A stretch of 41,292 bases of DNA from a virus (taxonomy: Duplodnaviria; Heunggongvirae; Uroviricota; Caudoviricetes), in the IMG/VR virus record IMGVR_UViG_2718217795_000002, positions 1 to 41,292 of that record, one strand, 5' to 3'. The notes under the pieces were generated by a model. That model was not told the origin of the DNA. It ran no database searches and saw only the letters and a list, made by a program, of their open reading frames with translations. The position numbers were made by a program, and so were the translations under genes. Of this stretch, positions 8,008-40,284 are shown piece after piece (position 1 is the first letter of the stretch; each line of letters starts with the position of its first letter).

Positions 8008-8340
8008 TCAATCGTAATAAGCTGGAATTGATTTTCCGCGTTGCTTCTGGCGGCCTGAGCAAGTCACACCTATTTCACTGCGTGGCTTGCTGTACCATGT
8101 GCGCTGATTCTTGCGCTCAATACGCTGCAGGTTGCTTTCAATCTGTTCGTGGTATTCAGCCAGCACCGTAAGGTCTATCGGATTCAGTGCGCTTTCTACT
8201 CGTGAATTCGGTTTGCGATTCAGCGAGAGAATAGGGCGGTTAACTGGTTTTGCGCTTACCCCAACCAACAGGGGATTTGCTGCTTTCCATTGAGCCTGTT
8301 TCTCTGCGCGACGTTCGCGGCGGCGTGTTTGTGCATCCAT
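8008..8340 (-). CDS. N: Antitermination protein N (lambda type), 110 aa
   Basis: N-terminal arginine-rich motif MDAQTRRRERRAEKQAQWKAAN identical to lambda N; track ORF trimmed to the ATG at 8340. Confidence 0.9.
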   Translation of the reverse strand: MDAQTRRRERRAEKQAQWKAANPLLVGVSAKPVNRPILSLNRKPNSRVESALNPIDLTVLAEYHEQIESNLQRIERKNQRTWYSKPRSEIGVTCSGRQKQRGKSIPAYYD

Positions 8341-8450
8341 CTGGATTCTCCTGTCAGTTAGCTTTGAGTAACGCGCCGTGATGCTTATCTCCACGGTTGC
8401 TGTCTTGCAGCTGCATTTCGCGCTACTCAAAGCTTTCTGCTTTGAATGCT

Positions 8451-8481
8451 GCCCTTCTTCAGGGCTTAATTTTTAAGAGCC
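8451..8481 (-). promoter_or_regulatory. nutL site: boxB (8451-8465, reads GCCCTGAAGAAGGGC on minus strand) and boxA-like GCTCTTAAA (8472-8480)
   Basis: Reverse complement matches recalled lambda nutL almost base for base; located between pL region and N. Confidence 0.8.
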
Positions 8482-8522
8482 TCACCTTCATGGTGGTCAG
8501 TGCGTCCTGCTGATGGCTAAAT

Positions 8523-8562
8523 AGTACGATTTGTACTTTATCGAGTCAATACAAAATGTTCT
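8523..8562. promoter_or_regulatory. Putative OL operators / pL region: perfect dyad agtac-N5-gtact (8523-8537) and a degenerate copy (8548-8562)
   Basis: Palindromes read by eye; related half-sites recur in the cI-cro intergenic region. Confidence 0.35.
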
Positions 8563-8612
8563 AAATATAGTTGGTTTTTTATAACGCTTTGTATTTAATG
8601 GGTTTATATTTT

Positions 8613-8642
8613 GGAAAAAGAAAACCCGACACTAAGGTCGGG
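8613..8642 (-). terminator. Putative rho-independent terminator downstream of cI (stem cccgac/gtcggg, T-rich tail on minus strand)
   Basis: 6-bp stem with 6-nt loop; A-rich run 8613-8624 on plus strand equals T-rich tail for the minus-strand transcript. Confidence 0.45.
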
Positions 8643-8674
8643 TTATTGTTGTGTGCTTTAGAGTGGTGAGGTTG

Positions 8675-9328
8675 TTAACTAAATGTCTCTTCAGGCCACT
8701 GGCTGGCGATAACTTTCCCTACAACGGAACAGCTATCATTGCATGGGATCATTGGATATTGCGGGTTTAGTGGTTGTAGGAACACCTGACCGCTATCCCT
8801 GATCAGTTTCTTGAAGGTAAACTCGTCACCACCAAGTCTGGCTATGCAGAAATCACCTGGCTCAACAGCCTGCTCAGGGTCAACGAGAATTAACATCCCG
8901 TCAGGAAAGCTTGGCTTGGATCCTGTTGGTGCGGTCATGGAATTACCTTCAACTTCAAGCCAGAACGCACAATCACTGGCTTTTTTGGTTGTGCTGACCC
9001 ATCTCTCCGCATCACCTTTGGTAAAGGTTCTAAGCTCAGGCGAGAACATCCCGGCCTGAACATGAGAAAAAACAGGGTACTCATATTGTTTTTTAACGGG
9101 GGCAGATGAGTATTCGCCAACAGGTGAAAATGTACCGTCGTGGTTGAATGAGACGTTATCAATACCAAGGTATTTAAACACCACACCAATCTCGTCAAGA
9201 GATGGATGACGAGATCCGCGCAACCAGTGACCAATTCCACCCTGCGTCATACCAAGCTCTTCAGCTAACTTCTCTTGAGTTATGCCGAGCTCTTTCATTC
9301 TGGATCTAGCCAGTTCATACCATTTCAT
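8675..9328 (-). CDS. cI: CI-type repressor, chimeric: non-lambda HTH N-terminal domain fused to a lambda-CI-like C-terminal S24 autocleavage/dimerisation domain
   Basis: C-terminal region from [14 protein letters not shown] to ...[12 protein letters not shown] is near-identical to recalled lambda CI; N-terminal HTH differs; start chosen at ATG 9328 (9 nt after the purine-rich AAGGG, which abuts the ATG at 9334). Confidence 0.9.
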
Positions 9329-9445
9329 TTTCATACCCTTATTATTACGCTCTGTACTAAAACCATCCATGCACAAGATGTATTTTTTGTTTGCATTCTA
9401 AAAGTACATATCGTATTATTGTTTCATGGTTACTATGGAGGGCAT
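9329..9445. promoter_or_regulatory. Divergent cI-cro control region (OR operators, pRM and pR)
   Basis: 117-bp intergenic region between divergent cI and cro with dyad-like elements (9344-9358, 9369-9396, 9403-9417). Confidence 0.5.
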
Positions 9446-9661
9446 ATGAGCAACCTACGAAAATATCGAGAGTCACTGAATATCTCTCAAACAACACTTG
9501 CTAAGGCAGTTGGATGCACACAGGGAGCTATCGGACATTGGGAATCTGGTCGTCGCTTCCCAGACCTTAAAACATGCCGTGCTCTTGTTGAGTGCCTAAA
9601 CAAGTTAGGCGCAAAAGTCAGTCTTGATGACGTGTTCCCGCCGGAACACAAAGCCGCTTAA
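9446..9661 (+). CDS. cro: Cro-like HTH repressor, 71 aa
   Basis: ATG with GGAGG SD; short HTH protein divergent from cI; track ORF 9275-9661 trimmed. Confidence 0.8.
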   Translation: MSNLRKYRESLNISQTTLAKAVGCTQGAIGHWESGRRFPDLKTCRALVECLNKLGAKVSLDDVFPPEHKAA

Positions 9662-9670
9662 GACATTCTA

Positions 9671-9701
9671 GCTCTTACACATCACAGCCCTGAAAAAGGG
9701 C
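9671..9701 (+). promoter_or_regulatory. nutR site: boxA GCTCTTACA (9671-9679) and boxB GCCCTGAAAAAGGGC (9687-9701)
   Basis: Matches recalled lambda nutR; located between cro and cII. Confidence 0.8.
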
Positions 9702-9777
9702 ATTACCAGAAACAAATCTCTATGGTTTTGCGTTTCTTTGCGAAGCCAACTCTATCTAATTATTAAGGAAATTATCT

Positions 9778-10059
9778 ATGGGTACTATTGCAACTAAAAG
9801 CAAGAAAGCGGCTCGCATCGAGTCAGCCTTGCTGAACAAACTGGCACTGATGGGGCAGAAGACATTCGCTCGAGCGATGGGGGTTCCTGAATATCAGGTA
9901 AGCCGATGGAAGAATGGTTTCTTCTCGCAGGTAAGCATGATGCTGGCTGTTCTGGAATACGGAATCGAAGACGATGAAATGGCTGAATTGACTAAGCGGC
10001 TTGCCGATTACCTGACAAAAGAAAAAGCCCCGAAGAACGGCGAATTCTTCGAGGCCTGA
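9778..10059 (+). CDS. cII: CII transcriptional activator, 93 aa
   Basis: RIESALLNKLA...SRWK...MLAVLEYG motif strongly resembles lambda CII. Confidence 0.85.
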   Translation: MGTIATKSKKAARIESALLNKLALMGQKTFARAMGVPEYQVSRWKNGFFSQVSMMLAVLEYGIEDDEMAELTKRLADYLTKEKAPKNGEFFEA

Positions 10060-14661: not shown

Positions 14662-14846
14662 ACGCCACAATTCAAACGATACCAGAGCTTCTTATCCAGA
14701 CGCGAGGCAATCAGACCGAAGTGGCGAGGATGCTTTCCTGCGCAAGAGGAACAGTGCTCAAGTACAACCGAGACAGAAAAGGCGAGCGTCACGTAATAGT
14801 TAACGGCGTCCTGATGGTCAAACAGGGCAAGAGGGGAAGACGATGA
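14658..14846 (+). CDS. ninH: NinH, 62 aa
   Basis: TIPELLIQTRGNQTEVARML... resembles lambda NinH. Confidence 0.75.
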   Translation: MNATIQTIPELLIQTRGNQTEVARMLSCARGTVLKYNRDRKGERHVIVNGVLMVKQGKRGRR

Positions 14847-15466
14847 GACTCGAAAGCGTAGCTAAATTTCATTCGCCAAAAAGCCCGATGATGAGCGACT
14901 CACCACGGGCCACGGCTTCTGACTCTCTTTCCGGTACTGATGTGATGGCTGCTATGGGGATGGCGCAATCACAAGCCGGATTCGGAATGGCTGCATTCTG
15001 CGGTAAGCATGAACTCAGCCAGAACGACAAACAAAAGGCTATCAACTATCTGATGCAATTTGCACACAAGGTATCGGGGAAATACCGTGGTGTGGCAAAG
15101 CTCGAAGGAAATACTAAGGCAAAGGTACTGCAAGTGCTCGCAACATTCGCTTATGCGGATTATTGCCGTAGTGCCGCGACGCCGGGCGCAAGATGCAGAG
15201 ATTGCCACGGTACAGGCCGTGCGGTTGATATAGCAAAAACAGAGCAGTGGGGGAGAGTTGTTGAGAAAGAGTGCGGAAGATGCAAAGGTGTCGGCTATTC
15301 AAGGATGCCAGCAAGCGCCGCATATCGCGCTGTGACGATGCTAATCCCAAACCTTACTCAACCCACCTGGTCACGCACTGTTAAACCACTGTATGACGCT
15401 CTGGTGGTGCAATGCCACAAAGAAGAGTCAATCGCAGACAACATTTTGAATGCGGTCACACGTTAG
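14843..15466 (+). CDS. Q: Late antiterminator Q (lambda type), 207 aa
   Basis: Essentially identical to recalled lambda Q along its length. Confidence 0.95.
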   Translation: MRLESVAKFHSPKSPMMSDSPRATASDSLSGTDVMAAMGMAQSQAGFGMAAFCGKHELSQNDKQKAINYLMQFAHKVSGKYRGVAKLEGNTKAKVLQVLATFAYADYCRSAATPGARCRDCHGTGRAVDIAKTEQWGRVVEKECGRCKGVGYSRMPASAAYRAVTMLIPNLTQPTWSRTVKPLYDALVVQCHKEESIADNILNAVTR

Positions 15467-16223: not shown

Positions 16224-16683
16224 TCAACGTAAGGCGTTCCTCGATATGCTGGCATGGTCAGAGGGAACTGATAACGGACGTCAGAAAACCAGAAATCATG
16301 GTTATGACGTCATTGTAGGAGGAGAGCTATTCACTGATTACTCCGATCACCCTCGCAAACTTGTCACGCTAAACCCCAAACTCAAATCAACAGCCGCCGG
16401 ACGCTACCAGCTTCTTTCCCGTTGGTGGGATGCCTACCGCAAGCAGCTTGGCCTGAAAGACTTCTCTCCCAAAAGCCAGGACGCTGTGGCACTGCAGCAG
16501 ATTAAGGAGCGTGGCGCTTTACCGATGATTGATCGCGGTGATATTCGTCAGGCTATTGATCGTTGCAGCAATATTTGGGCTTCATTGCCCGGTGCTGGCT
16601 ACGGTCAGTATGAACACAAGATCGATAGTCTGATTGCCAAATTCAAAGAAGCTGGCGGGGTGGTTAATGAAACTTCGCTATAA
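16207..16683 (+). CDS. R: Endolysin R (lambda-type lytic transglycosylase), 158 aa
   Basis: [35 protein letters not shown]... matches lambda R. Confidence 0.95.
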
Positions 16684-17059
16684 GCTGGTTATTTCTGCTT
16701 TCCTCCTGACTTTATTCGGTTCTCTCGTCTGGTCAGCTAACCACTACCACAGCAAATACCAGCGCGAAAAGAAACGTGCTGATGAGGCTGTACAAAATGC
16801 CGAATCGGCAACCGCTATTACCAATAACGTCCTGCAATCACTGCAAATCGTCAATACAGTTCTGGAGGCTAACCAGCATGCAAAACAGCAGATCGCACTG
16901 GAGTCACAGAGAACCCAGGCTGATATCAAAGTGGCTGTTGCGGATGATGATTGTGCTGTACGCCCTGTGCCTGCTGCCGCTGCTGACCGGTTGCGGAAGT
17001 ACGCGAACAGTTTACGTACCGATTCCGGCGGTACCGTTGCCAGCAAGCCTGACTACTGA
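16667..17059 (+). CDS. i-spanin (Rz-like), 130 aa
   Basis: Start at ATG 16667 overlapping R end; N-terminal TM helix then coiled-coil region; track ORF 16634-17059 trimmed. Confidence 0.7.
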   Translation: MKLRYKLVISAFLLTLFGSLVWSANHYHSKYQREKKRADEAVQNAESATAITNNVLQSLQIVNTVLEANQHAKQQIALESQRTQADIKVAVADDDCAVRPVPAAAADRLRKYANSLRTDSGGTVASKPDY

Positions 17060-17216
17060 AACTCCCCAGCCAGTCATTCCCGAGCCGCTGACCTATGGGG
17101 CCAGTCTGGATCTGAATGTGAGCCTGCTTTCGGCGTTGGGACAATGCAATATTGACAAAGCGGGGATTCGAAGTATCGAGATGCGCCGTAACGCTTTGCT
17201 GGCAGCAGTCAAATAG
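16944..17216 (+). CDS. o-spanin (Rz1-like lipoprotein), 90 aa, +1 frame, overlapping the 3' part of the Rz gene
   Basis: Signal peptide MMIVLYALCLLPLLTGC with lipobox LLTGC; Pro-rich mature region; starts inside Rz and runs past its stop. Confidence 0.5.
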   Translation: MMIVLYALCLLPLLTGCGSTRTVYVPIPAVPLPASLTTETPQPVIPEPLTYGASLDLNVSLLSALGQCNIDKAGIRSIEMRRNALLAAVK

Positions 17217-17242
17217 TCCGAACAAAGAACAGGAATATATTT

Positions 17243-17593
17243 ATGCCCCCTCGAACTCCAAAAGCCTGCCGCGTTCGCGGCTGCCGTAATACCACGACAG
17301 ACCCGTCAGGCTACTGCGAAAGCCACAAAAGCGAAGGCTGGAAGCAATACAAGCCAGGACAATCCCGTCATCAGCGCGGCTACGGTTCGAAGTGGGACGT
17401 TATCCGTGCGCGTGTGCTGAAACGTGACAAAGGCCTGTGTCAGTTATGTCTGCGTGCCGGTGTGGTGCGTGAAGCGAAAACCGTTGACCACATCATCCCT
17501 AAAGCGCATGGCGGCACCGATGCAGACAGTAATCTGCAGAGCCTGTGCTGGCCGTGCCATAAGGCGAAGACGGCCCGTGAACGGCTGAAGTGA
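17243..17593 (+). CDS. HNH endonuclease (packaging-associated), 116 aa
   Basis: Cys-rich N-terminus, HNH motif (DHIIPKAHGG ... CHKAK); immediately upstream of terminase. Confidence 0.85.
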   Translation: MPPRTPKACRVRGCRNTTTDPSGYCESHKSEGWKQYKPGQSRHQRGYGSKWDVIRARVLKRDKGLCQLCLRAGVVREAKTVDHIIPKAHGGTDADSNLQSLCWPCHKAKTARERLK

Positions 17594-17619
17594 TAATGAT
17601 TCTCAACTGCCTGAGGGGA

Positions 17620-17680
17620 GGGGCGGGTCAAATCCCTGTGACCTGACGTCTTCCGGACTGCCCGCCCCATCGTTTTTTTA
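17620..17680 (+). other. GC-rich inverted repeat (ggggcggg ... cccgcccc) followed by T7 run; putative terminator or cos-proximal structure
   Basis: 8-bp perfect arms 17620-17627 and 17661-17668 with 33-nt spacer, then TTTTTTT 17673-17679. Confidence 0.35.
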
Positions 17681-17718
17681 TACCCGCGAAAAATGAAATT
17701 TAACCAGGAGTGCCGCAT

Positions 17719-18213
17719 ATGGCTGGAACGGCGGGGCGTTCCGGGCGTCGCCCCAAGCCAACGGCGCGCAAGGCGCTGGCCGGAAACCCCGGCAAGCGAG
17801 CCCTGAACAAAGATGAACCTGTTTTTACGCCCATCAAAGGCGTTGAACCACCGGAGTGGTTCGCAGAAGAAAATCTCCCTCTCGCCACGATCATGTGGCA
17901 ACTGACAACCAAAGAACTCTGCGGTCAGGGCCTGCTGTGCGTGACTGACCTCGCGGTGCTTGAGCGGTGGTGCGTAGCCTATGAGTTCTGGCGACGTGCC
18001 GTGAAAAATATTGCCATACAGGGCAACACCATCACCGGTGCAATGGGCGGCATGGTCAAAAATCCGGAGCTGACCGCCAAAAAAGAACAGGAGTCCGAGA
18101 TGAGCAGCACGGGTGCAATGCTCGGACTTGACCCCAGCAGCCGCCAGCGTCTGATTGGCCTGGCGGGGCAGAAGAAAGCTACTAACCCGTTTCTGAAAAT
18201 CATCGAATCATGA
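17719..18213 (+). CDS. Terminase small subunit (P27-like), 164 aa
   Basis: ATG at 17719 with AGGAG SD (track start is GTG 17710); position before terL. Confidence 0.8.
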
Positions 18214-19943
18214 GCCGGAAATCTTACCCCAACGTAAATGCTGCAAATCAGTATGCCCGGGATGTCGTGCGCGGAAAGATTGTGGCCTGCCAGTTTGTGA
18301 TTCAGGCCTGCCAGCGCCATCTTGATGACCTGATGGAGGAAAAAAGTAAGTCGTTTCGTTACCGCTTCGACAAGGACCTGGCTGAACGGGCCGCGAAATT
18401 TATTCAGCTGTTGCCGCACACCAAGGGTGAGTGGGCATTTAAGAGGATGCCCATCACGCTGGAGCCGTGGCAGCTCTTTGTGATCTGCTGCGCGTTTGGC
18501 TGGGTCAATAAAGGCTCCCGGCTGCGCCGCTTCCGTGAGGTGTATACCGAAATCCCCCGTAAGAACGGCAAATCGGCAATCTCTGCCGGTGTCGCCCTGT
18601 ATTGTTTTGCCTGTGATAACGAGTTCGGCGCGGAAGTGTATTCCGGTGCCACGACGGAGAAACAGGCATGGGAAGTCTTTCGTCCGGCAAGACTGATGTG
18701 TAAACGCACACCCATGCTGACGGAAGCGTTCGGGATTGAGGTTAACGCCTCAAACATGAACCGTCCGGAGGATGGTGCGCGTTTTGAACCGCTGATCGGT
18801 AACCCCGGTGATGGTTCATCACCCCACTGTGCGGTGGTGGATGAATATCACGAGCACGCCACCGATGCGCTTTACACCACGATGCTTACCGGGATGGGGG
18901 CGCGACGTCAGCCACTGATGTGGGCCATTACTACTGCCGGGTACAACATTGAGGGGCCGTGCTACGACAAGCGACGGGAAGTTATCGAGATGCTCAACGG
19001 GTCGGTACCCAACGATGAACTGTTCGGGATCATCTATACCGTTGACGAAGGCGATGACTGGACCGACCCGCAGGTGCTGGAAAAAGCTAACCCGAATATT
19101 GGCGTGTCGGTTTATCGCGAATTTTTGTTAAGTCAGCAGCAGCGTGCGAAAAATAACGCCCGTCAGGCAAACGTCTTTAAAACAAAACACCTCAATATCT
19201 GGGTGTCGGCGCGTTCGGCGTATTTCAACCTGGTGAGCTGGCAGAGCTGCGAGGATAAATCACTGACCCTTGAGCAGTTCGAGGGGCAGCCGTGCATTCT
19301 GGCCTTTGACCTGGCGCGTAAGCTGGATATGAACAGCATGGCGCGACTTTATACCCGCGAGATTGACGGTAAAACGCATTACTACAGTGTGGCCCCGCGT
19401 TTCTGGGTACCGTATGACACGGTGTACAGCGTCGAGAAAAATGAAGATCGCCGGACAGCCGAACGCTTTCAGAAATGGGTGGAAATGGGCGTCCTGACCG
19501 TTACCGATGGTGCGGAGGTGGATTATCGCTACATCCTCGAAGAGGCCAAAGCGGCGAACAAAATCAGCCCGGTCAGCGAGTCACCCATCGACCCCTTCGG
19601 GGCGACCGGGCTGTCACATGACCTTGCTGATGAAGACCTGAATCCCATCACCATCATTCAGAACTACACCAACATGTCCGACCCGATGAAAGAGCTGGAA
19701 GCGGCAATTGAATCGGGGCGCTTTCATCATGATGGCAATCCCATCATGACCTGGTGTATCGGTAACGTGGTCGGCAAAACCATTCCGGGTAACGATGATG
19801 TGGTGAAGCCCGTCAAAGAGCAGGCGGAAAACAAAATCGATGGTGCAGTTGCGCTGATTATGGCGGTTGGCAGAGCCATGCTGTATGAGAAAGAAGACAC
19901 GCTGTCCGACCACATTGAGTCCTACGGGATCCGCTCGCTTTAA
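18210..19943 (+). CDS. Terminase large subunit (HK97-like Terminase_1 family), 577 aa
   Basis: ATPase and nuclease domain signatures; ATGA overlap with terS. Confidence 0.95.
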
Positions 19944-19954
19944 CTGAGGTAATT

Positions 19955-20137
19955 ATGATCATGCTGATTCTCGCGCCTCTGGTGGGCGTGCTGGGGGCGC
20001 TTTTGCTGGCGTATGGCGCCTGGCTGATTTATCCCCCGGCGGGGTTTGTTGTTGCCGGGGCGTTGTGCCTGTTCTGGTCGTGGCTGGTAGCGCGATATCT
20101 CGACCGTACACAGATGTCTGTTGGTGGAGGTAAATAG
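19955..20137 (+). CDS. Small membrane protein (two predicted TM helices), 60 aa
   Basis: ATG with GAGG SD; hydrophobic; fills the terL-portal gap. Confidence 0.45.
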
Positions 20138-21378
20138 TGTTCTTTTCGGGATTATTTCAACGAAAAAGTGACGCACCGGTGACCACGCCAGCAGAGCTGG
20201 TGGATGCTATCGGGCTGTCATACGACACCTATACCGGAAAGCAGATCAGCAGCCAGAGGGCCATGCGACTGACGGCGGTTTTTTCCTGCGTCAGGGTGCT
20301 GGCGGAGTCGGTCGGGATGTTGCCCTGCAACCTGTATCACCTGAACGGCAGCCTGAAGCAGAGAGCCACTGGCGAACGTCTGCATAAGCTGATCTCCACG
20401 CATCCCAATGGCTATATGACGCCGCAGGAGTTCTGGGAGCTGGTGGTCACCTGTCTGTGCCTGCGGGGAAACTTTTACGCCTACAAAGTGAAAACATTTG
20501 GCGAAGTGGCTGAACTGCTGCCCGTCGATCCCGGCTGTGTGGTACCGAAGCTTAACAGTAGCTGGGAGCCGGTCTATCAGGTCACATTCCCGGATGGCTC
20601 CACGGATGTACTGAGCCAGGAGGATATCTGGCATGTGCGCACGCTGACGCTGGACGGACTGGTGGGGCTGAATCCCATCGCCTATGCCCGCGAGGCAATA
20701 TCGCTGGCGGCAGCGACCGAAGAGCACGGGGCCAGACTGTTCAGCAATGGCGCGGTGACGTCGGGTGTGTTGCGTACAGAGCAGACGCTGTCAGATCAGG
20801 CTTACGAGCGCCTGAAGAAAGATTTTGAGGAGCGTCACACCGGGCTTGGCAATGCTCACCGCCCGATGATCCTTGAGATGGGGCTGGACTGGAAGTCGAT
20901 GGCGCTGAACGCCGAGGACAGCCAGTTCCTGGAAACCCGCAAGTTTCAGCTTGAAGAAATCTGTCGTCTGTTCCGGGTGCCGTTGCACATGGTGCAGAAC
21001 ACCGATCGCGCCACCTTCAACAATATCGAAGAGCTGGGGCTGGGATTTATCAACTATTCACTGGTGCCGTATCTGACCCGCATCGAACAGCGGATCAACA
21101 CCGGACTGGTACGAAAAAGTAAGCAGGGCGTTTATTACGCCAAATTTAACGCCGGGGCGTTACTGCGCGGGGATATGAAGTCCCGTTTTGAAGCCTACGC
21201 CACCGGGATCAACTGGGGAATTTACTCTCCCAATGACTGCCGCGACCTGGAAGATATGAATCCGCGTCCCGGTGGTGATGTCTATCTCACACCGATGAAC
21301 ATGACCACGAAACCCTCCGATGGCAGTAAAGCCGGTAAGCAGAAGGATAACGCCAATGCAGACGAAACAACGTCTTGA
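20137..21378 (+). CDS. Portal protein (HK97 family), 413 aa, GTG start
   Basis: Portal family similarity; GTG preceded by GGTGGAGG SD. Confidence 0.9.
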   Translation: MFFSGLFQRKSDAPVTTPAELVDAIGLSYDTYTGKQISSQRAMRLTAVFSCVRVLAESVGMLPCNLYHLNGSLKQRATGERLHKLISTHPNGYMTPQEFWELVVTCLCLRGNFYAYKVKTFGEVAELLPVDPGCVVPKLNSSWEPVYQVTFPDGSTDVLSQEDIWHVRTLTLDGLVGLNPIAYAREAISLAAATEEHGARLFSNGAVTSGVLRTEQTLSDQAYERLKKDFEERHTGLGNAHRPMILEMGLDWKSMALNAEDSQFLETRKFQLEEICRLFRVPLHMVQNTDRATFNNIEELGLGFINYSLVPYLTRIEQRINTGLVRKSKQGVYYAKFNAGALLRGDMKSRFEAYATGINWGIYSPNDCRDLEDMNPRPGGDVYLTPMNMTTKPSDGSKAGKQKDNANADETTS

Positions 21379-22006
21379 TGTACCGCTGAGTCTGAAATCT
21401 GTCAGTGACTCCGGTGAGTTTGAAGGGTATGGCTCCGTCTTTGGTGTAAAGGACAGCCACGATGATGTGGTGATGTCCGGGGCATTTGCTGCTTCCCTGC
21501 GGGCGTGGAGTGACAGAAAAGCGTTACCTGCGCTGCTCTGGCAGCACCGCATGGATGAACCCATCGGTGTTTACACCGAAATGAAGGAAGACGATGTCGG
21601 GCTTTACGTCAGGGGACGGTTGCTTATTGATGATGATCCCCTCGCAAAACGCGCACATGCACACATGAAGGCCGGTTCGTTAACCGGCCTTTCTATTGGG
21701 TACGTCCTGAAAGACTGGGAATACGACCGGAGCAAAGAAGCCTTTCTGCTGAAAGAAATCGACCTATGGGAAGTCAGCCTGGTGACGTTCCCGTCTAACG
21801 ACGAGGCGCGGATCAGCGACGTCAAGAACGCACTGGCCCGCGGGGAAATCCCCGAACAGAAAAAAATCGAAAGAGTCCTGCGTGATGTCGGACTCTCCCG
21901 TACCCAGGCCAAAGCATTCATGGCCGGGGGCTATGGCGCACTGTCCCTGCGCGACGCTGAGGATGTGGGCTCTGCACTGAATGCACTGAAAAATCTGAAC
22001 TTCTAA
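21356..22006 (+). CDS. Prohead maturation protease (HK97 family), about 216 aa
   Basis: HK97-type protease similarity; start set at ATG 21356 (AAGGA SD) rather than track 21320. Confidence 0.85.
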   Translation: MQTKQRLDVPLSLKSVSDSGEFEGYGSVFGVKDSHDDVVMSGAFAASLRAWSDRKALPALLWQHRMDEPIGVYTEMKEDDVGLYVRGRLLIDDDPLAKRAHAHMKAGSLTGLSIGYVLKDWEYDRSKEAFLLKEIDLWEVSLVTFPSNDEARISDVKNALARGEIPEQKKIERVLRDVGLSRTQAKAFMAGGYGALSLRDAEDVGSALNALKNLNF

Positions 22007-22020
22007 TCAGGAGAAATACG

Positions 22021-23226
22021 ATGGCGGTTGATATTAAAGATGTCGAACAGGTCGCGCAGGAGCTGCAGCAGAAGTTTGACGACTTCAAAGCAAAGAACGA
22101 CAAGCGCGTGGATGCGATTGAGCAGGAAAAAGGCAAGCTTGCCGGGCAGGTGGAAACCCTGAACGGGAAACTCAGCGAGCTGGAAAATCTCAAAAGCGAT
22201 CTTGAAAAAGAGCTGCTTGAGCTGAAACGTCCGGCAGGTGGCGCGCAAAATAAACTGGCCACCGAGCATAAAGAAGCGTTTGTGGGCTTTTTGCGTAAAG
22301 GCCGTGAAGACGGTCTGCGCGATCTGGAGCGTAAGGCATTGCAGGTGGGCACCGATGAAGACGGTGGCTATGCCGTGCCGGAAGCACTGGATCGCAACAT
22401 TCTCACCCTGCTGAAAGATGAAGTGGTGATGCGCCAGGAAGCCACGGTAATCACTGTTGGCGGTTCCGACTACAAAAAACTGGTGAATCTGGGCGGCACG
22501 GCTTCCGGATGGGTTGGCGAGACTGACGCGCGCTCCCAGACCGCCACCTCAAAACTGGGACTGATTGAACCTTTCATGGGGGAAATCTACGGTAACCCGC
22601 AGGCCACCCAGAAAATGCTGGATGATGCCTTCTTCAACGTAGAGGCCTGGATCAACAGCGAGCTGGCAACCGAATTTGCCGAACAGGAAGAAATTGCCTT
22701 TACCACTGGTGATGGCACCAAGAAGCCGAAAGGGTTCCTGGCGTATGAGTCCACGGATGAAACCGATAAGGTACGTGCGTTCGGCAAACTTCAGCATATT
22801 GTATCCGGTGAAGCGACGGCAGTGACCGCTGATGCCATTATCAAACTGATTTACACGCTGCGTAAGGCACATCGCACCGGTGCGAAGTTCATGATGAACA
22901 ACAACAGCCTGTTTGCCATTCGTCTGCTGAAAGACACCGAGGGTAACTATCTGTGGCGTCCGGGGCTGGAACTGGGGCAGCCGTCCTCTCTGGCGGGTTA
23001 CGGTATCGCTGAAAACGAGCAGATGCCGGATATCGCCGCGGATGCGAAAGCCATTGCATTTGGTAACTTCAAACGGGGTTACACCATCGTTGACCGTATC
23101 GGTACCCGCATTTTGCGCGATCCGTACACCAATAAACCGTTTGTCGGTTTTTATACCACCAAGCGCACCGGCGGCATGCTGGTCGATTCGCAGGCCATCA
23201 AACTGCTGAAGATTGCTGCGGCGTAA
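22021..23226 (+). CDS. Major capsid protein (HK97 fold, with N-terminal coiled-coil delta domain), 401 aa
   Basis: AGGAG SD; HK97-like MCP similarity; coiled-coil N-terminal 100 aa. Confidence 0.95.
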   Translation: MAVDIKDVEQVAQELQQKFDDFKAKNDKRVDAIEQEKGKLAGQVETLNGKLSELENLKSDLEKELLELKRPAGGAQNKLATEHKEAFVGFLRKGREDGLRDLERKALQVGTDEDGGYAVPEALDRNILTLLKDEVVMRQEATVITVGGSDYKKLVNLGGTASGWVGETDARSQTATSKLGLIEPFMGEIYGNPQATQKMLDDAFFNVEAWINSELATEFAEQEEIAFTTGDGTKKPKGFLAYESTDETDKVRAFGKLQHIVSGEATAVTADAIIKLIYTLRKAHRTGAKFMMNNNSLFAIRLLKDTEGNYLWRPGLELGQPSSLAGYGIAENEQMPDIAADAKAIAFGNFKRGYTIVDRIGTRILRDPYTNKPFVGFYTTKRTGGMLVDSQAIKLLKIAAA

Positions 23227-23274
23227 TCACTCAGGGGCGCTGAACTGCGCCCCTGTTCTGATGGGTGAAGAATC

Positions 23275-23475
23275 ATGATCCTGAAACAAGATCTGAAATG
23301 GTCACCGGACGGTATGCGTGTTGAGGTCATTCAGGCCGGTGAGTATGACGACGGAGCGCTTCCTGCCCGGGTGCAGGAGATTGCACTTCAGGCCGGGTTA
23401 GCAGAGCGCGGAATCAGTGCAAAAAGCAGTAAAGCGGCAAAAGAAAAAAAAGCCACGACCAGTAAAGAGGGCTGA
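23275..23475 (+). CDS. Hypothetical head-associated protein, 66 aa
   Basis: ORF between capsid and connector genes; Lys-rich C-terminus. Confidence 0.5.
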   Translation: MILKQDLKWSPDGMRVEVIQAGEYDDGALPARVQEIALQAGLAERGISAKSSKAAKEKKATTSKEG

Positions 23476-23477
23476 GT

Positions 23478-23801
23478 ATGCTTCTGACAATGGAAGAGAT
23501 TAAAGCCCAACTCCGGCTGGATGAGGATTTCGATACTGATGACCGCCATCTGCAACTGCTGGCATGTGCGGCACAAAAGCGGACGGAAACGTATCTGAAC
23601 CGGAAGCTCTATGCACCGGATGAAACCATTCCGGACAGCGATCCGGACGGGCTGCACCTGCCGGATGATATTCGTCTGGGGATGCTGATGCTTATCAGCC
23701 ATTTTTACGAAAACCGCTCGTCGGTTACGGAAGTGGAGAAACTCGACATGCCGCAGAGTTTTGGCTGGCTTGTCGGCCCGTACAGGTACTTTCCGCAATG
23801 A
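23478..23801 (+). CDS. Head-tail connector (gp6-like), 107 aa
   Basis: Position and similarity to phage head-tail connector family. Confidence 0.8.
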   Translation: MLLTMEEIKAQLRLDEDFDTDDRHLQLLACAAQKRTETYLNRKLYAPDETIPDSDPDGLHLPDDIRLGMLMLISHFYENRSSVTEVEKLDMPQSFGWLVGPYRYFPQ

Positions 23802-24208
23802 AAATTAGTCAGGCGCAGACCAGCGCAACCTACATTCTGCCGGACCCCGGTGAACTGAATAAACGCGTCCTGATCCGCCAGCGGGTGGATATGCCCGCGG
23901 ATAACTTTGGCGTGGAGCCTCAATACCCGGTTACGTTCCGGGCATGGGCGAAGGTTATCCAGACCAGTGCCACCACCTGGCAGGAAACCGCACAGACCGG
24001 GGACGCCATCACCCATTACATCACCATTCGTTACCGCCGGGGGATCACTGCTGATTATGAGGTGGTCTGTGATGACAGTGTGTACCGGGTGAAACGTCAG
24101 CGTGATCTGAACGGGGCGCGGCGCTTTCTGCTGCTGGAGTGTACGGAACTGGGCGAATTTACGCAGAGTCACGGAGGCAGCAATGGCGACTCCATTTTTT
24201 CACGTTGA
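23798..24208 (+). CDS. Head closure / head-tail adaptor protein, 136 aa
   Basis: ATGA coupling; head-tail joining family similarity. Confidence 0.8.
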   Translation: MKISQAQTSATYILPDPGELNKRVLIRQRVDMPADNFGVEPQYPVTFRAWAKVIQTSATTWQETAQTGDAITHYITIRYRRGITADYEVVCDDSVYRVKRQRDLNGARRFLLLECTELGEFTQSHGGSNGDSIFSR

Positions 24209-24689
24209 TGTTCAGCAGCCCGCGGAGATGCGCTTTAACCGCGCCCGTGTCAGGCGGGCGTTTGTCACGATTGGGCAGCGTCATATGCGTGATGCCCGTC
24301 GGCTGGTGATGCGCCGTGCGCGGTCGGCACCGGGTGAAAACCCCGGTTATCAGACCGGACGCCTGGCTCGTTCGATTGGTTACATGGTGCCGAGAGCCAG
24401 TAAAAAGCGAGCCGGTTTTATGACACGCATTGCCCCTAACCAGCGCAACGGGAAGGGGAACCGGATGATCTCTGGTGACTTCTATCCGGCGTTTCTGTTT
24501 TTTGGTGTCCGGGGAGGAGCAAAGCGTCGTCGCAGCCATCATCGTGGTGCATCCGGTGGCAGCGGCTGGCGACTGGCTCCACGTAATAACTTCATGGTGG
24601 AAACGCTTGAAAAGAACCGCAGCTGGACACGCTATTTTCTGGCGCGGGAATTGCGTAAATCACTGAAGCCGGAGCGACGACACAGATGA
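24183..24689 (+). CDS. Tail component (HK97 gp10-like), 168 aa
   Basis: GGAGG SD; conserved position in SfV-like phages. Confidence 0.7.
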   Translation: MATPFFHVDVQQPAEMRFNRARVRRAFVTIGQRHMRDARRLVMRRARSAPGENPGYQTGRLARSIGYMVPRASKKRAGFMTRIAPNQRNGKGNRMISGDFYPAFLFFGVRGGAKRRRSHHRGASGGSGWRLAPRNNFMVETLEKNRSWTRYFLARELRKSLKPERRHR

Positions 24690-25246
24690 AACTGACGCCT
24701 GTTATTGCTGCGCTGCGTGCCCGCTGCCCGTATTTTGAAAACCGGGTGGCAGGCGCGGCACAGTTCAAAAATCTGCCGGAGGTCGGAAAGCTGAGACTCC
24801 CGGCGGCGTATGTGGTACCGGGTGATGACTCTCCGGGAGAAAACAAAAGCCAGACCGACTACTGGCAGGAGCTGAAAGAGGGCTTCTCCGTGGTTGTCAT
24901 ACTGAGTAACGGGCGTGATGAGCGCGGTCAGTTTGCCTCGTATGATGTGGTGGACGATGTCCGGCAGATGCTCTTTAAGGCCCTGCTGGGCTGGAACCCG
25001 GAAGCGTGCGGTAACCCGATTACCTATGACGGCGGCACGCTGCTGGATCTGAATCGTCATGAGCTGATTTATCAGTTCGATTTTTCGGTCATCAGCGAGC
25101 TGACTGAAGACGATACCCGCCAGCAGGATGATCTGAACAGTCTGGATGAACTGCAAACGCTGGCGATTGATGTTGATTATCTCGAGCCCGGTAACGGGCC
25201 TGACGGCGATATCGAACATCACACCGAAATAACCCTTCCTTCCTGA
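24686..25246 (+). CDS. Tail completion / sheath terminator-like protein (Mu gp37-like), 186 aa
   Basis: ATGA coupling; position before sheath gene. Confidence 0.7.
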   Translation: MKLTPVIAALRARCPYFENRVAGAAQFKNLPEVGKLRLPAAYVVPGDDSPGENKSQTDYWQELKEGFSVVVILSNGRDERGQFASYDVVDDVRQMLFKALLGWNPEACGNPITYDGGTLLDLNRHELIYQFDFSVISELTEDDTRQQDDLNSLDELQTLAIDVDYLEPGNGPDGDIEHHTEITLPS

Positions 25247-25254
25247 GGATCCTC

Positions 25255-25425
25255 ATGTTTGTCAAACCTGTTAAAGGGCGGTCAGTGCCTGACCCTGCCC
25301 GCGGCGACCTTTTGCCCGCCGAAGGGCGAAATGTTGACGAGAACAACTACTGGCTGCGCCGTGAAGCAGCGGGTGATATCCGGCGCGTGAATAAAAAGGT
25401 GAACACCGATGACGATAAGCTTTAA
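25255..25425 (+). CDS. Small conserved tail-module protein (DUF2635-like), 56 aa (below ORF-track cutoff)
   Basis: ATG 25255 with GAGGA SD; fills the gap before the sheath gene and overlaps its start; MFVKP...GRSVPDPARGD recalled as conserved in Mu-like tail modules. Confidence 0.5.
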   Translation: MFVKPVKGRSVPDPARGDLLPAEGRNVDENNYWLRREAAGDIRRVNKKVNTDDDKL

Positions 25426-26905
25426 CACCATTCCATCGAATACGCTGGTTCCGCTGTTTTATGCGGAAATGGATAACCAGGCGGCGAATACTGCACAGGA
25501 CAGCGGAGCATCGCTGCTGATTGGTCATGCCAGTAACGGTGCAGAGATTGTTGCCAACAGTCTGGTGTTGATGCCGTCGGCAGACTATGCACGCCAGATT
25601 TGTGGTGCGGGAAGTCAGCTGGCGCGTATGGTCGAGGCTTATCGCCAGACCGACCCGTTTGGTGAGCTGTATGTGATTGCCGTTCCGGAAGCCACAGGCG
25701 CGGCGGCAACGGTTACGCTGACGGTGACCGGGGAAGCAACCGAAAGCGGCGCGGTGAATGTCTATGTGGGACGTACCCGCGTGCAGGCTCCGGTGACCAA
25801 CGGCGATAACGTCACGACGATTGCCAGCAGTATCAAAGATGCCATCAATGCCGTTCCGACTCTGCCGTTTACGGCTTCATCTTCGGCAGGCGTGGTCACA
25901 CTGACCGCGCGTCATAAGGGGCTTTGCGGGAATGAAATTCCTGTCAGCCTCAATTACTACGGCTTTGGTGGGGGCGAAGTGCTGCCAGCGGGCGTACAGA
26001 TTGCCGTGGCGACGGGTACCGCCGGAACGGGTGCTCCGGTTCTCACCGGCGCGGTGGCTGCAATGGCGGATGAGCCGTTTGATTATATCGGCCTGCCGTT
26101 CAACGACACGGCCTCCGTTAACACGCTGGTGACCGAGATGAACGATACCAGCGGTCGCTGGAGCTATGCGCGTCAGCTGTATGGTCATGTGTATACGGCA
26201 AAGATCGGCACGCTGTCAGAACTGGTGACCGCAGGTGACCAGTTTAACCAGCAGCACATTACCCTGGCAGGGTACGAAAAAGAGACCCAGACGCCTGCCG
26301 ACGAGCTGGCGGCAAGCCGTACCGCCCGCGCAGCGGTGTTTATCCGCAACGATCCGGCACGTCCCACGCAGACCGGTGAGCTGGTGGGTATGCTGCCTGC
26401 GCCGAAGGGGAAACGGTTCACGATGACCGAACAACAGACCCTGCTGTCTCATGGCGTGGCAACGGCGTATGTCGAAAGCGGGGTGCTGCGCATTCAGCGT
26501 GATGTCACCACGTACAGGAAAAACGCTTACGGGGTTGCGGATAACAGCTACCTCGACAGCGAGACGCTGCATACCAGTGCCTATGTACTGCGCAAACTGA
26601 AATCCGTCATTACCAGTAAGTACGGGCGTCACAAGCTTGCCAGTGACGGTACCCGCTTTGGTCCCGGTCAGGCGATTGTCACCCCGGCGGTGATCAAAGG
26701 GGAACTGCTGGCAACCTACCGTCAGCTTGAGCGTGCGGGGATCGTGGAAAACTACGAACTGTTTAAGCAGTACCTGGTTGTGGAGCGTGATGCCAGCGAT
26801 CCGAACCGCCTGAACACGCTGTTCCCGCCTGACTATGTTAACCAGTTGCGTGTCTTTGCCGTGGTTAACCAGTTCCGTCTTCAGTATTCAGAGGAGTCCG
26901 CATAA
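25409..26905 (+). CDS. Contractile tail sheath protein (Mu gpL-like), 498 aa
   Basis: Tail sheath family similarity and size. Confidence 0.9.
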   Translation: MTISFNTIPSNTLVPLFYAEMDNQAANTAQDSGASLLIGHASNGAEIVANSLVLMPSADYARQICGAGSQLARMVEAYRQTDPFGELYVIAVPEATGAAATVTLTVTGEATESGAVNVYVGRTRVQAPVTNGDNVTTIASSIKDAINAVPTLPFTASSSAGVVTLTARHKGLCGNEIPVSLNYYGFGGGEVLPAGVQIAVATGTAGTGAPVLTGAVAAMADEPFDYIGLPFNDTASVNTLVTEMNDTSGRWSYARQLYGHVYTAKIGTLSELVTAGDQFNQQHITLAGYEKETQTPADELAASRTARAAVFIRNDPARPTQTGELVGMLPAPKGKRFTMTEQQTLLSHGVATAYVESGVLRIQRDVTTYRKNAYGVADNSYLDSETLHTSAYVLRKLKSVITSKYGRHKLASDGTRFGPGQAIVTPAVIKGELLATYRQLERAGIVENYELFKQYLVVERDASDPNRLNTLFPPDYVNQLRVFAVVNQFRLQYSEESA

Positions 26906-27261
26906 TGGCCCGTATCGGGGGAACCTGTTATTTCAAAATTGACGGTCAGCAGCTATCGCTGACCGGCGGCATTGAGGTGCCCATGAACAGGACGGTCAAT
27001 GATGACATCATCGGCCTGGACGGTTCAGTGGACCGCAAGGAAACTCACCGTGCGCCTTATGTCAAAGGGACCTTCAAGGTGCCGAAGAATTTTCCGGTGA
27101 ACAAAATCACCTCGTCTGATGAGATGACCATCACTGCCGAGCTGGCGAACGGTCAGGTCTATGTACTGTCGTCTGCCTGGCTGCACGGCGAAGCGAACCA
27201 TAATGCCGAAGAAGGCACGGTCGATCTTGAATTCCACGGTGAAGAAGGGGATTACCAGTAA
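26905..27261 (+). CDS. Tail tube protein (Mu gpM-like), 118 aa
   Basis: Position after sheath and family similarity. Confidence 0.85.
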   Translation: MARIGGTCYFKIDGQQLSLTGGIEVPMNRTVNDDIIGLDGSVDRKETHRAPYVKGTFKVPKNFPVNKITSSDEMTITAELANGQVYVLSSAWLHGEANHNAEEGTVDLEFHGEEGDYQ

Positions 27262-27530
27262 TGAAAGAGCTTGAGTTAAAGAAACCGATTACCGCTCATG
27301 GCGAGACACTCTCCGTACTGGAGTTTGATGAGCCCACCGGGAAAGATGTCCGCGAGCTGGGGTATCCCTACCAGATGAATCAGGATGAGTCCGTCAGACT
27401 TCTGGCGCATGTGGTGTCGAAATACATTGTGCGGCTGGCGAAAGTGCCGCAAAGCTCTGTCGACCAGATGTCTCCGGCAGACCTGAATGCAGCGGCGTGG
27501 CTTGTGGCCGGTTTTTTCCTCCAGGCCTGA
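27261..27530 (+). CDS. Tail assembly chaperone (short, zero-frame product), 89 aa
   Basis: Position between tube and tape measure; slippery TTTTTTC near its 3' end. Confidence 0.8.
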   Translation: MKELELKKPITAHGETLSVLEFDEPTGKDVRELGYPYQMNQDESVRLLAHVVSKYIVRLAKVPQSSVDQMSPADLNAAAWLVAGFFLQA

Positions 27531-27679
27531 CGGCTGAATACCTCACTGATCGCTTCTTTGACTGCGCCAGCTACTGGCGCATTAATCCCTTCGAATTGCT
27601 GAATATGCCGATCAGTGAAATTCCCTTGCTGGTCAGTCAGGCAAACAGGATAGAGCAGGAGAAACGCACACATGGCTGA
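27261..27679 (+). CDS. Tail assembly chaperone long form produced by programmed -1 frameshift at T_TTT_TTC (27512-27518), about 139 aa
   Basis: The -1 frame is open from the slip site to 27679 and overlaps the tape-measure start; canonical X_XXY_YYZ heptamer. Confidence 0.55.
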
Positions 27680-29507: not shown

Positions 29508-29567
29508 TGAAAAATTAATCTGTTAATGAGTCCCACTCCGGTGGGATTTTTTATGTACGGAGTTTAT

Positions 29568-34565: not shown

Positions 34566-34568
34566 TCC

Positions 34569-37443: not shown

Positions 37444-37450
37444 ATAGATG

Positions 37451-40209: not shown

Positions 40210-40224
40210 TGGTGTCCCCTGCAG
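40210..40224. repeat. attL core: 15 bp of the argW 3' end duplicated at 1690-1704
   Basis: Exact direct repeat. Confidence 0.8.
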
Positions 40225-40284
40225 GAATCGAACCTGCAATTAGCCCTTAGGAGGGGCTCGTTATATCCATTTAACTAAGAGGAC
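40210..40284 (-). tRNA. argW: tRNA-Arg (anticodon CCU), 75 nt including CCA
   Basis: Reverse complement reads GTCCTCTTAGTTAAATGGATATAACGAGCCCCTCCTAAGGGCTAATTGCAGGTTCGATTCCTGCAGGGGACACCA; cloverleaf-consistent, CCT anticodon in loop. Confidence 0.95.

Follow-up and report, generated by a model that had tools for sequence, protein, structure and literature searches.

A lambdoid prophage cI gene joining a lambda-type cleavage and oligomerization domain to a non-lambda DNA-binding domain

What immunity does a lambdoid prophage confer when its CI repressor resembles lambda CI in one part of the protein only, and how did such a gene arise? The question is raised by the cI locus of the window, the whole stretch of 41,292 nucleotides analyzed here, for which the original prediction proposed that a recombination joint inside cI unites the C-terminal part of lambda CI with a different DNA-binding domain. 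We consider it very likely that the cI of this resident lambdoid prophage is of a common non-lambda (Nil2-like) immunity type and encodes a two-module mosaic protein moved by recombination. The specificity module would comprise CI residues 1-83 (HTH and linker), cro, and six operators, and would recognize a 15-bp palindrome. The second would comprise the lambda-type cleavage-site region and the S24 autopeptidase/oligomerization domain (lambda residues 101-236) and would be exchanged among heteroimmune E. coli phages by homologous recombination, one joint coinciding exactly with the beginning of the conserved cleavage-site region and parts of the domain itself having been exchanged as well.

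The cI gene and its joint with lambda CI

Located on the minus strand (8675..9334), cI encodes 219 aa from the ATG at 9334, the likelier starts being this codon or the ATG at 9328; translated from 9334, the product opens MKMKWYEL. The longest ORF (8675..9376, minus strand) runs to 233 aa from a TTG at 9376, and public annotation places the start at 9370. Pfam assigned residues 25-72 to HTH_3 (PF01381, E = 8e-11), an N-terminal HTH DNA-binding domain, and residues 101-223 to Peptidase_S24 (PF00717, E = 1e-28, 99.8 bits versus a cut-off of 23.3). As in other LexA/CI-type autocleaving repressors, the HTH is accompanied by the Ser-Lys catalytic dyad of S24 repressors (lambda Ser149 and Lys192, both conserved) and by the Ala-Gly scissile bond, lambda Ala111-Gly112 being identical within a VQAG motif. 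Proteins 99 to 100% identical to CI are annotated as CI or LexA-family in phages and E. coli.

Defective prophages are numerous in E. coli, and because the window is itself a prophage in a chromosome, cI might be a decayed remnant in a cryptic element, no longer a working immunity repressor. However, the ORF is intact, both domains score well over the Pfam cut-offs, the catalytic and cleavage residues are retained, and cro, cII, N, O, P, and Q are intact. Furthermore, a 98 to 99% identical cassette occurs in the isolated, plaque-forming phages Dewey, Louie, phi458, and vB_EcoP-720R6, and the 90%-identity protein cluster of CI holds 1686 member sequences, so that decay has scarcely any likelihood.

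Aligned by BLASTP with lambda CI (sequence taken from NC_001416), the protein is 71% identical in the alignment (E = 5e-111), and this identity is distributed as a step: 0 to 50% per 10-residue bin up to lambda residue 100 and 90 to 100% from residue 101 on. The last 136 residues, starting at Tyr101, agree at 133 positions, the changes being S139C, E217D, and G236S, none of which is known to fall at a cooperativity-mutant position. DNA homology to lambda within cI begins at 9085 and stops at the stop codon, with 94.8% identity over 405 nt between window positions 8681-9085 and lambda 37233-37637. Lambda DNA similarity was undetectable in 9086-9670 (N-terminal domain, OR, and cro) and in 8516-8616 (OL). 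The gene is thus divided into a lambda-type block (8675..9085, minus strand) holding the cleavage-site region, C-terminal domain (CTD; lambda residues 101-236), and stop codon, which matches PDB 3BDN, 8GMU, 2HO0, and 1F39 and is 94.9% identical to HK97 at the DNA level, and a non-lambda block (9086..9334, minus strand) of 83 aa, whose HTH DNA-binding domain (NTD) and linker belong to the Nil2/epsilon34/L family and found only remote PDB matches. All three elements of the predicted chimera, namely a C-terminal part nearly identical to lambda CI, an NTD unrelated to it, and a joint inside cI, placed here at lambda codon 101 (nt 9085), were borne out by this alignment, and BLASTP, DNA comparison, and the per-bin profile rule out that the NTD is a lambda variant. 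As an example, the case is clean and quantifiable: two modules meet inside one gene, at the border between structural domains.

Could such a profile arise by vertical inheritance of cI with lambda, with a CTD preserved by strong purifying selection and an NTD diversified beyond recognition for a new immunity? The CTD family is broadly conserved across Enterobacterales repressors (60 to 100% identity), in which the NTD has invariably diverged further than the CTD. However, at 9085 a few nucleotides suffice for similarity to drop to background, both flanks of the lambda-type block are nonhomologous to lambda, and the CTD is internally mosaic. The 408-nt CTD segment differs from lambda by 23 nt and only three amino acids, so at 94 to 95% DNA identity the synonymous sites are conserved too, and their divergence does not equal that of the NTD. 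The two domains are also discordant in their relatives: the nearest NTD relatives of the window's CI (81 to 87% identical) have CTDs only 80 to 85% identical, and for relatives of lambda's NTD the CTD figure is 76 to 87%, versus 98% between window and lambda; for the closest NTD relatives the CTD range is 80 to 87%. Vertical descent fails because CTD synonymous sites are conserved and the relatives of NTD and CTD disagree, and we regard it as barely credible. The comparisons instead support cI as a probable recombinant gene whose two parts meet abruptly at lambda codon 101. To name lambda as the donor is arbitrary, because the CTD is a pool module common to lambda/HK97, Nil2-type, and VT1-Sakai/mEpX1-type repressors; transfer may have run from lambda to this type, in reverse, or to both from a third source.

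The position of the joint bears on induction. Lambda CI fragment 101-229 alone binds RecA*, the NTD being dispensable for binding (PMC6363387), and the shared block (residues 101-236) corresponds to this experimental fragment (PDB 2HO0/8GMU). In structural studies this fragment serves as an autonomous RecA-binding/cleavage unit, and the joint falls at its first residue. Given 98% identity to lambda residues 101-236, we infer by homology that RecA* stimulates self-cleavage of CI: upon DNA damage, RecA* would bind the lambda-type module, leading to Ala-Gly self-cleavage and prophage induction. Induction in vivo might instead proceed mainly via an antirepressor, with the CTD serving chiefly for oligomerization. 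HK97-like and P22-like phages matching the window's early region do carry annotated antirepressor genes (roi/ant), and lambdoid prophages are known to be inducible by antirepressors (PMC3121763). Nevertheless, purifying selection has evidently preserved the cleavage site together with Ser149 and Lys192, none of the genes identified here in the window is an antirepressor gene, and we judge this route very unlikely relative to RecA-stimulated cleavage.

Operators, promoters, and Cro

We scrutinized the regions flanking cI for the sites at which the repressor would act. OL and OR together hold six operators that share the consensus A-R-T-A-C-R-nnn-Y-G-T-A-Y-T, a 15-bp palindrome. On the left are OL1 (AGTACGATTTGTACT, a perfect palindrome; 8523..8537), OL2 (AATACAAAATGTTCT; 8548..8562), and OL3 (ATAACGCTTTGTATT; 8581..8595), and on the right OR3 (ATTACGCTCTGTACT; 9344..9358), OR2 (TGCACAAGATGTATT; 9370..9384), and OR1 (AGTACATATCGTATT; 9403..9417). 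The operator positions named earlier (8523-8562 and 9344-9417) are hence real. Sites equivalent to OL3, OR2, and OR3 are annotated as putative operators in AP005153. OR2 is the weakest match to the palindrome (three mismatches), and OL3 is also weak, with three. Allowing at most one mismatch, AGTACnnnnnGTACT was matched three times in 41 kb, versus 0.39 expected, with all three matches in OL/OR and 0 of 100 shuffles reaching three. At up to two mismatches, enrichment of the operator palindrome across the whole window was not significant (12 versus 7.8 expected), and the case for the operators is made only by the stringent test, combined with their clustering and their conservation in AP005153. 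As a negative control, the off-register pattern TAC-N6-GTA gave chance-level matches, none in the immunity region.

In agreement with the expectation that the operators are unrelated to those of lambda, the best lambda operator match in OL/OR still had at least 6 mismatches in 17, and 17-bp sites of the lambda group (TATCACCGC...GGTGATA type) occurred at neither OL nor OR. Centre spacings (O1-O2/O2-O3) also depart from lambda, being 25/33 bp in OL and 33/26 bp in OR versus 24/20 and 24/23, respectively, and inspection between OR1 and OR2 found no fourth operator that would give a lambda-like 24-bp spacing.

A consensus scan returned candidate promoters for both early operons. PL (TTGACT-17-TACTAT; 8521..8549, minus strand) is overlapped by OL1 at its -10 and by OL2 at its -35, and lambda homology resumes at 8515, the position of lambda PL +1. 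PR (TTTGCA-18-TATTAT; 9390..9419, plus strand) lies upstream of cro and is overlapped by OR1 across its spacer and -10; OR2 does not overlap its -35. PRM was not called by the scan, its -35 being weak. Read from the sequence, a putative PRM -10 (AATAAT; 9341..9346, minus strand) would place the start at or near the ATG at 9334, giving a leaderless transcript as in lambda. OR3 overlaps this presumptive core, and OR2 is centred at about -43 from the presumptive start, a geometry that matches lambda (OR2 at about -42). CI dimers at OR1 and OL1 would be expected to switch PR and PL off; CI at OR2 (about -43) would probably activate the weak, possibly leaderless PRM; and CI at OR3 would switch PRM off. 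We infer lambda-type cooperativity for this CI, as well as looping, from homology, and lambda's pairwise OR1-OR2 cooperativity may not carry over unchanged because the spacings differ and OR2 is off the PR -35.

The product of cro (9446..9661, plus strand; 71 aa) is an all-alpha protein of the HTH_3 type (Pfam) that does not resemble lambda Cro, for which tblastn found no match in the window. Cro is 35% identical to the CI NTD, and both share the recognition-helix motif TQG(G/A)IGHW. Because NTD, Cro, and operators are all non-lambda, a predicted immunity specificity differing from that of lambda is well founded.

The remainder of the switch retains the lambdoid layout, with divergent cI and cro, a tripartite OR plus OL, N/nut, CII/PRE, and Q. 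Consistent with the claim that N, nutL, nutR, and Q remained lambda-like, N (8008..8340, minus strand; Pfam N36) is 98% identical to lambda N at the DNA level, and the Q antiterminator (14843..15466, plus strand) is 99.5% identical to lambda Q in protein. The boxB elements of nutL (GCCCTGAAGAAGGGC; 8451..8465, minus strand, inside a 97.7% identical block at 8428-8515) and nutR (GCCCTGAAAAAGGGC; 9687..9701, plus strand) are identical to those of lambda. The cII gene (9778..10059, plus strand; Pfam Phage_CII, tblastn) encodes a protein 49% identical to lambda CII, and within the opening codons of cII, read along the cI-sense strand, is TTGC-N6-TTGC (9789-9802). Directly 3' of cI lies an intrinsic terminator resembling lambda t_imm (8623..8644, minus strand), 86% identical to lambda 35799-35834. 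rexA and rexB are absent.

Immunity relatives and distribution

The chimera is already known: it belongs to an immunity type that is common, had been sequenced and annotated before, and extends beyond this window, and lambda-type CTDs joined to Nil2-like NTDs were described in the epsilon34 genome paper of 2008 (PMC2629481). The same cI-cro cassette is found in Nil2, Stx1-converting phage, Stx2-II, 2851, and CP-933H, and an identical cassette also sits in a different prophage backbone. The region is matched by 122 phage records, in about 63 of which the NTD is 95% identical or more; across 5426 complete E. coli genomes, the NTD-OR-cro block is present in 775 and the CTD block in 1206. As an instance of modular phage evolution this is a textbook case that matters little beyond correct annotation. 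Experimental work on the Nil2-type repressor was not found in the searchable literature.

CI architecture, joint, and Cro type in the Stx phages Nil2 (CAC95084), AP005153 (BAC77937), Stx2 phage-II, 2851/1717, and CP-933H are as in the window. Their NTDs are 95 to 96% identical to that of the window (96.3% for many), with 93.4% DNA identity across cI-OR-cro, and the six putative operators of AP005153 align with ours (spacings 25/33 and 26/32 versus 25/33 and 26/33 here). An identity of about 92% or more in both NTD and Cro predicts shared specificity (PMC2629481), and the window reaches this level with the Nil2/Stx1-converting-phage/CP-933H type, with which its operator arrangement also agrees. 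Because NTD, operators, and Cro type all match, the prophage would be expected to share the immunity specificity of the Nil2/Stx-phage group. It should hence be labeled as putatively heteroimmune to lambda/HK97, despite 71% CI identity, and homoimmune with a widespread group to which Stx1-, Stx2a-, and Stx2c-converting phages belong. DNA divergence from these phages is nonetheless about 5 to 8%, and their N is of the HK97 type, with about 1.5 kb of additional ORFs, whereas in the window N is of the lambda type and no gene separates OL from cI. The Nil2-type group is probably the 'Clade I' of Stx-phage CI, because that clade is given 61% overall identity to lambda CI and assigned to Stx2c/Eru2-3 phages (PMC8951638).

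Lambda/HK97 CI (P03034) is 98% identical to the window across residues 101-236, including cleavage site, dyad, and oligomerization surfaces, and the switch layout is alike. In contrast, its NTD and linker have only the HTH fold in common with those of the window, Cro is of a different fold family, the operators differ in sequence and spacing, the rex genes are missing here, and the OL-OR distance is 880 bp in the window versus 2.4 kb in lambda. HK97 CI, considered as a distinct type with a lambda-like CTD, was rejected as such, being 99% identical to lambda CI and hence a true member of the lambda immunity group, to which the window's NTD does not belong.

The repressors of Salmonella phage epsilon34 (gp46), g341c, and SPN9CC share the NTD family (52 to 54% identity to epsilon34/g341c; 54% to phage L) and a lambda-family CTD, and the epsilon34 operator consensus, WTACRAWWTGTAT, is similar to that of the window (PMC2629481). 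The epsilon34 CTD, however, is only about 80% identical in protein and 73% in DNA to the CTDs of the window and lambda. It represents an older, co-diverged state, not a recent exchange, and its immunity is predicted to differ from that of the window. The laboratory hybrids lambda imm434 and lambda imm21 follow the same principle, in that specificity in NTD, operators, and cro can be exchanged independently. In those hybrids the whole of cI was exchanged, with crossovers outside the gene; unlike them, the window's cI has one crossover inside the gene, at the boundary of linker and cleavage-site region. Domain swapping has also been engineered, as in a lambda NTD-186 CTD hybrid repressor (PMC8053113).

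The C-terminal domain as a shared, mosaic module

The lambda-type CTD was found fused to at least five to seven NTD clusters. It is common to heteroimmune E. coli phages, including lambda/HK97, the type described here, and the VT1-Sakai/mEpX1-type chimera (a CI cluster of 214 to 215 aa), at 92 to 97% DNA identity, making it a common currency among E. coli lambdoid phages. The window's own CTD is mosaic. Its 5' two-thirds group with lambda, being nearer to lambda/HK97 (94.4 to 94.9%) than to the Stx-phage CTD (92.4%), and its 3' third groups with that of the Stx1 phage, which is homoimmune (p about 0.001 by maximal chi-square permutation).

The lambda-type CTD block occupied 1427 places in the 1206 E. 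coli genomes that carry it, often two or three per genome. Given near-identical dimerization and tetramerization surfaces and several copies per genome, co-resident heteroimmune prophages may form mixed CI dimers or oligomers, mutually titrating repressor and coupling their stability and induction thresholds, a suggestion that we hold to be tentative and rather doubtful. If true, heterodimers with two different DNA-binding domains should bind neither operator set well, and the patchy CTD mosaic would be a genetic trace of prophage co-residence. The shared CTD could also bear on induction cross-talk in polylysogens, for example EHEC, whose Shiga-toxin release is controlled by repressor cleavage. 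The CI of Lambdavirus PDP110P1 (P0038) has a second joint at a different place, around residue 141.

Structure of the repressor locus and the joint within cI

Two divergent repressor genes make up the locus in the window, a cI ORF on the minus strand (longest ORF 8675-9376, starting at TTG) and a 71-codon cro ORF on the plus strand (from 9446; Pfam HTH_3). According to Pfam, the cI product has an N-terminal HTH_3 and a C-terminal Peptidase_S24 domain, and the pair is flanked on the left by a lambda-type N (PF11438) and on the right by a CII-family gene. The stretch 8675-9445, comprising cI and the OR region as far as the cro start codon, was originally predicted to encode a chimeric CI in which a lambda C-terminal domain (CTD) is joined to an unrelated N-terminal DNA-binding domain (NTD). 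BLASTP aligned the product to lambda CI (reference sequence checked against NC_001416) with E = 5e-111, and identity was bimodal, with 10-residue bins scoring 0-50% through lambda residue 100 and 90-100% thereafter. The joint lies at Tyr101, beyond which 133 of 136 residues are identical to lambda CI. The three changes are S139C, E217D, and G236S, and none of them affects the Ala111-Gly112 scissile bond, Ser149, or Lys192. In the DNA, window 8681-9085 was 94.8% identical to lambda 37233-37637, with similarity in cI ending at the stop codon on the 3' side. No DNA similarity to lambda was detectable 5' of the joint (9086 onward), including the linker, HTH domain, OR, and cro, in agreement with the predicted unrelated NTD.

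The joint is a recombination joint, since synonymous sites are conserved in the common block, the domain similarities are discordant, and the block is itself mosaic. Only 23 nucleotide differences and three amino acid changes occur in the 408-nt segment, and at 9085 DNA similarity to lambda drops to background over just a few nucleotides. For discordance, we searched the database with the C-terminal block and split the matches at the joint. The four database repressors with NTDs closest to the window's (P0006, P0026, P0032, and P0062; 81-87%) had CTDs just 80-85% identical, and proteins with NTDs closest to lambda's (64-77%) had CTDs 76-87% identical, while the window and lambda CTDs were 98% identical. 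Across 24 informative sites in the CTD block (8678-9085), the 5' two-thirds grouped the window with lambda/HK97 and the 3' third grouped it with the homoimmune Stx1 phage, with a breakpoint near 8831-8855 (maximal chi-square, permutation p ~0.001). Pairwise DNA identities of this block among lambda, HK97, the window, and the Stx1 phage were 92-97% and did not sort by immunity type.

The conserved cleavage-site region, in which the motif YPxFSxVQAG shows little or no variation among the repressor types compared, begins at the residue-101 joint. Residue 101 is also the first of lambda fragment 101-229, a self-contained RecA*-binding and cleavage unit (PMC6363387; PDB 2HO0/2HNF). A reasonable mechanism would be that two diverged cI genes crossed over where their nucleotide similarity first begins.

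Lambda-like sequence resumes around the locus, as the original prediction held for N, nutL, nutR, and Q. The N region (8084-8366) was 98% identical to lambda, the PL leader with nutL (8428-8515) was 97.7% identical and ended exactly at lambda PL +1, and Q was 99.5% identical at the protein level. On inspection of the sequence, the boxB elements of nutL and nutR were identical to those of lambda, and several nin genes were lambda-like. Directly after cI is a hairpin terminator (8623-8644), within a patch (8617-8652) that shows 86% identity to the lambda terminator downstream of rexB (35799-35834). As rexA and rexB are absent from the window, 8617-8680 represents the 'empty site' configuration of the lambda rex insertion, with both flanks recognisable.

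Operators, promoters, and predicted function

Six 15-bp sites in OL and OR fit the palindrome AGTACnnnnnGTACT, namely OL1 (8523-8537, a perfect match), OL2 (8548-8562), OL3 (8581-8595), OR3 (9344-9358), OR2 (9370-9384), and OR1 (9403-9417). Their symmetrised consensus is A-R-T-A-C-R-nnn-Y-G-T-A-Y-T, in which AC and GT are invariant. At one mismatch or fewer, the palindrome matched three times in 41 kb versus 0.39 expected, a count reached by none of 100 shuffles, and all three matches were inside OL or OR. At two mismatches the whole-window count was not significant, hence the weaker operators rest on position and conservation. The Stx1-converting phage (AP005153) has annotated putative operators at all six positions, and the operator proposed for epsilon34, a related phage, WTACRAWWTGTAT (PMC2629481), is close to the consensus. 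Every match of a lambda operator to OL/OR had at least 6 mismatches in 17 positions, bearing out the expectation that the operators differ from those of lambda. The CI NTD and Cro were 35% identical and have the motif TQG(G/A)IGHW in common in the predicted recognition helix, which fits two proteins reading the same operators.

Consensus promoter scans identified candidates for PR (TTTGCA-18-TATTAT, 9390-9419), overlapped by OR1, and PL (TTGACT-17-TACTAT, 8549-8521), overlapped by OL1 and OL2. From sequence alone, PRM may have the -10 element AATAAT (9341-9346) and a poor -35, with transcription starting at or next to ATG 9334. This arrangement would put OR2 at approximately -43 and OR3 over the core, as in lambda, and the cI message would possibly be leaderless. 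Public annotations start cI at ATG 9370. We infer that the real start is ATG 9334 (MKMKWYEL...) or ATG 9328, because predicted OR3 and the putative PRM core fall inside the longer N-terminal extension. A sigma-70-like match inside cro, facing cI (TTGAGA-17-GATATT, 9462-9490, minus strand), is probably due to chance, given three promoter-like matches in the region versus 2.5 expected. A TTGC-N6-TTGC motif was found on the cI-sense strand within the first cII codons (9789-9802, minus), as at lambda PRE, and a second on the opposite strand upstream of cII (9731-9744, plus).

By homology, the window CI would be an SOS-inducible prophage repressor whose specificity half, together with the operators, defines an immunity other than lambda's, and whose C-terminal half is expected to support lambda-like dimerisation and RecA*-stimulated Ala-Gly cleavage. 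Higher-order assembly via the lambda-type CTD should also occur, but is the least secure expectation because several features differ from lambda. Centre-to-centre spacings of O1-O2/O2-O3 were 25/33 bp in OL and 33/26 bp in OR, compared with 24/20 and 24/23 in lambda; there is no overlap between OR2 and the PR -35; the linker is different; and the distance from OL to OR is 880 bp instead of 2.4 kb. A candidate reading with some upside is that heteroimmune repressors with the same CTD could cross-talk via mixed oligomers in polylysogens.

Relatives of the repressor and distribution of its modules

The cI-OR-cro region was 98-99% identical to the isolated phages Dewey, Louie, phi458, and vB_EcoP-720R6/683R2, and 93.4% identical to Nil2, the Stx1-converting phage, Stx2 phage-II, 2851, the PA series, and others. 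Several of these records label it 'similar to phage lambda CI' or 'cI repressor for prophage CP-933H'. In a survey of Stx-phage repressors, Clade I (Eru2/Eru3) was closest to lambda CI, with 61% overall identity (PMC8951638), and the window's repressor family presumably belongs to this clade. The C-terminal protease domain of the epsilon34 repressor is ~80% identical to lambda and HK97 according to its genome paper, which concludes that epsilon34 shares the RecA mechanism but differs in operator specificity (PMC2629481). The kind of chimera, the window protein, and the conclusion originally drawn are therefore already on record; the exact joint position, a second joint type, and the intra-domain mosaic add detail at most, not a new phenomenon.

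Lambda-type CTDs (at least 60% identity) were fused to at least 5-7 NTD clusters, three of them large (lambda type, the window's type, and VT1-Sakai/mEpX1 type). Repressor P0038, identical to CI of Lambdavirus PDP110P1 (OZ035751.1 38085-38726), combines an NTD of the VT1-Sakai/mEpX1 type with a diverged cleavage-site region and a core CTD, and is 100% identical to lambda only from approximately residue 141. This is a second, independent joint inside cI at a different place. Phage L carries the window's NTD family on a more distant CTD, with ~46% identity overall and the NTD better conserved than the CTD. A search of 5426 complete E. coli genomes located the C-terminal block at 1427 places in 1206 of them, with up to three per genome, and the window-type NTD/OR/cro block in 775. 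More than half of the lambda-type-CTD copies (801 of 1427 places) were of the window's immunity type. The CTD module is a common pool of E. coli lambdoid phages in which lambda is no privileged donor. The chimera itself is confirmed and its recombinational interpretation supported, with caveats on donor identity and cooperativity.

E. coli 1008S13 (NZ_CP147053.1 3437528-3438788) carries the window's OL-cI-OR-cro cassette unchanged (1261 bp, 100% identity) within a prophage inserted next to sbcB that differs from the window in its integrase, recombination genes, replication genes, and Q. Hence, the immunity cassette moves between backbones as a unit.

Prophage context

The window is an integrated chromosomal prophage with host genes at both ends, encoding a LacY-family symporter (1-1248) and a formate/nitrite-transporter-family protein (40360-41292). 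The integrase gene (38891-40084) adjoins tRNA-Arg(CCT) (40210-40284), and a candidate att core is the 16-bp direct repeat GGAATCGAACCTGCAA (1998-2013 and 40224-40239). A serotype-converting cassette for O-antigen glucosylation, of the SfII/SfV type, adjoins the integrase on the minus strand (35971-38368) and encodes a 520-aa GtrII-family glucosyltransferase and a 305-aa GT2 bactoprenol glucosyltransferase-like protein. The virion module (16228-35900), which includes a contractile tail sheath (25409-26905), was 96-97% identical to the myovirus records vB_EcoM-720R4 and Shigella phage SfII. As its early region is lambda/HK97-like, the prophage combines early genes of lambdoid type with an SfII-like myovirus late region.
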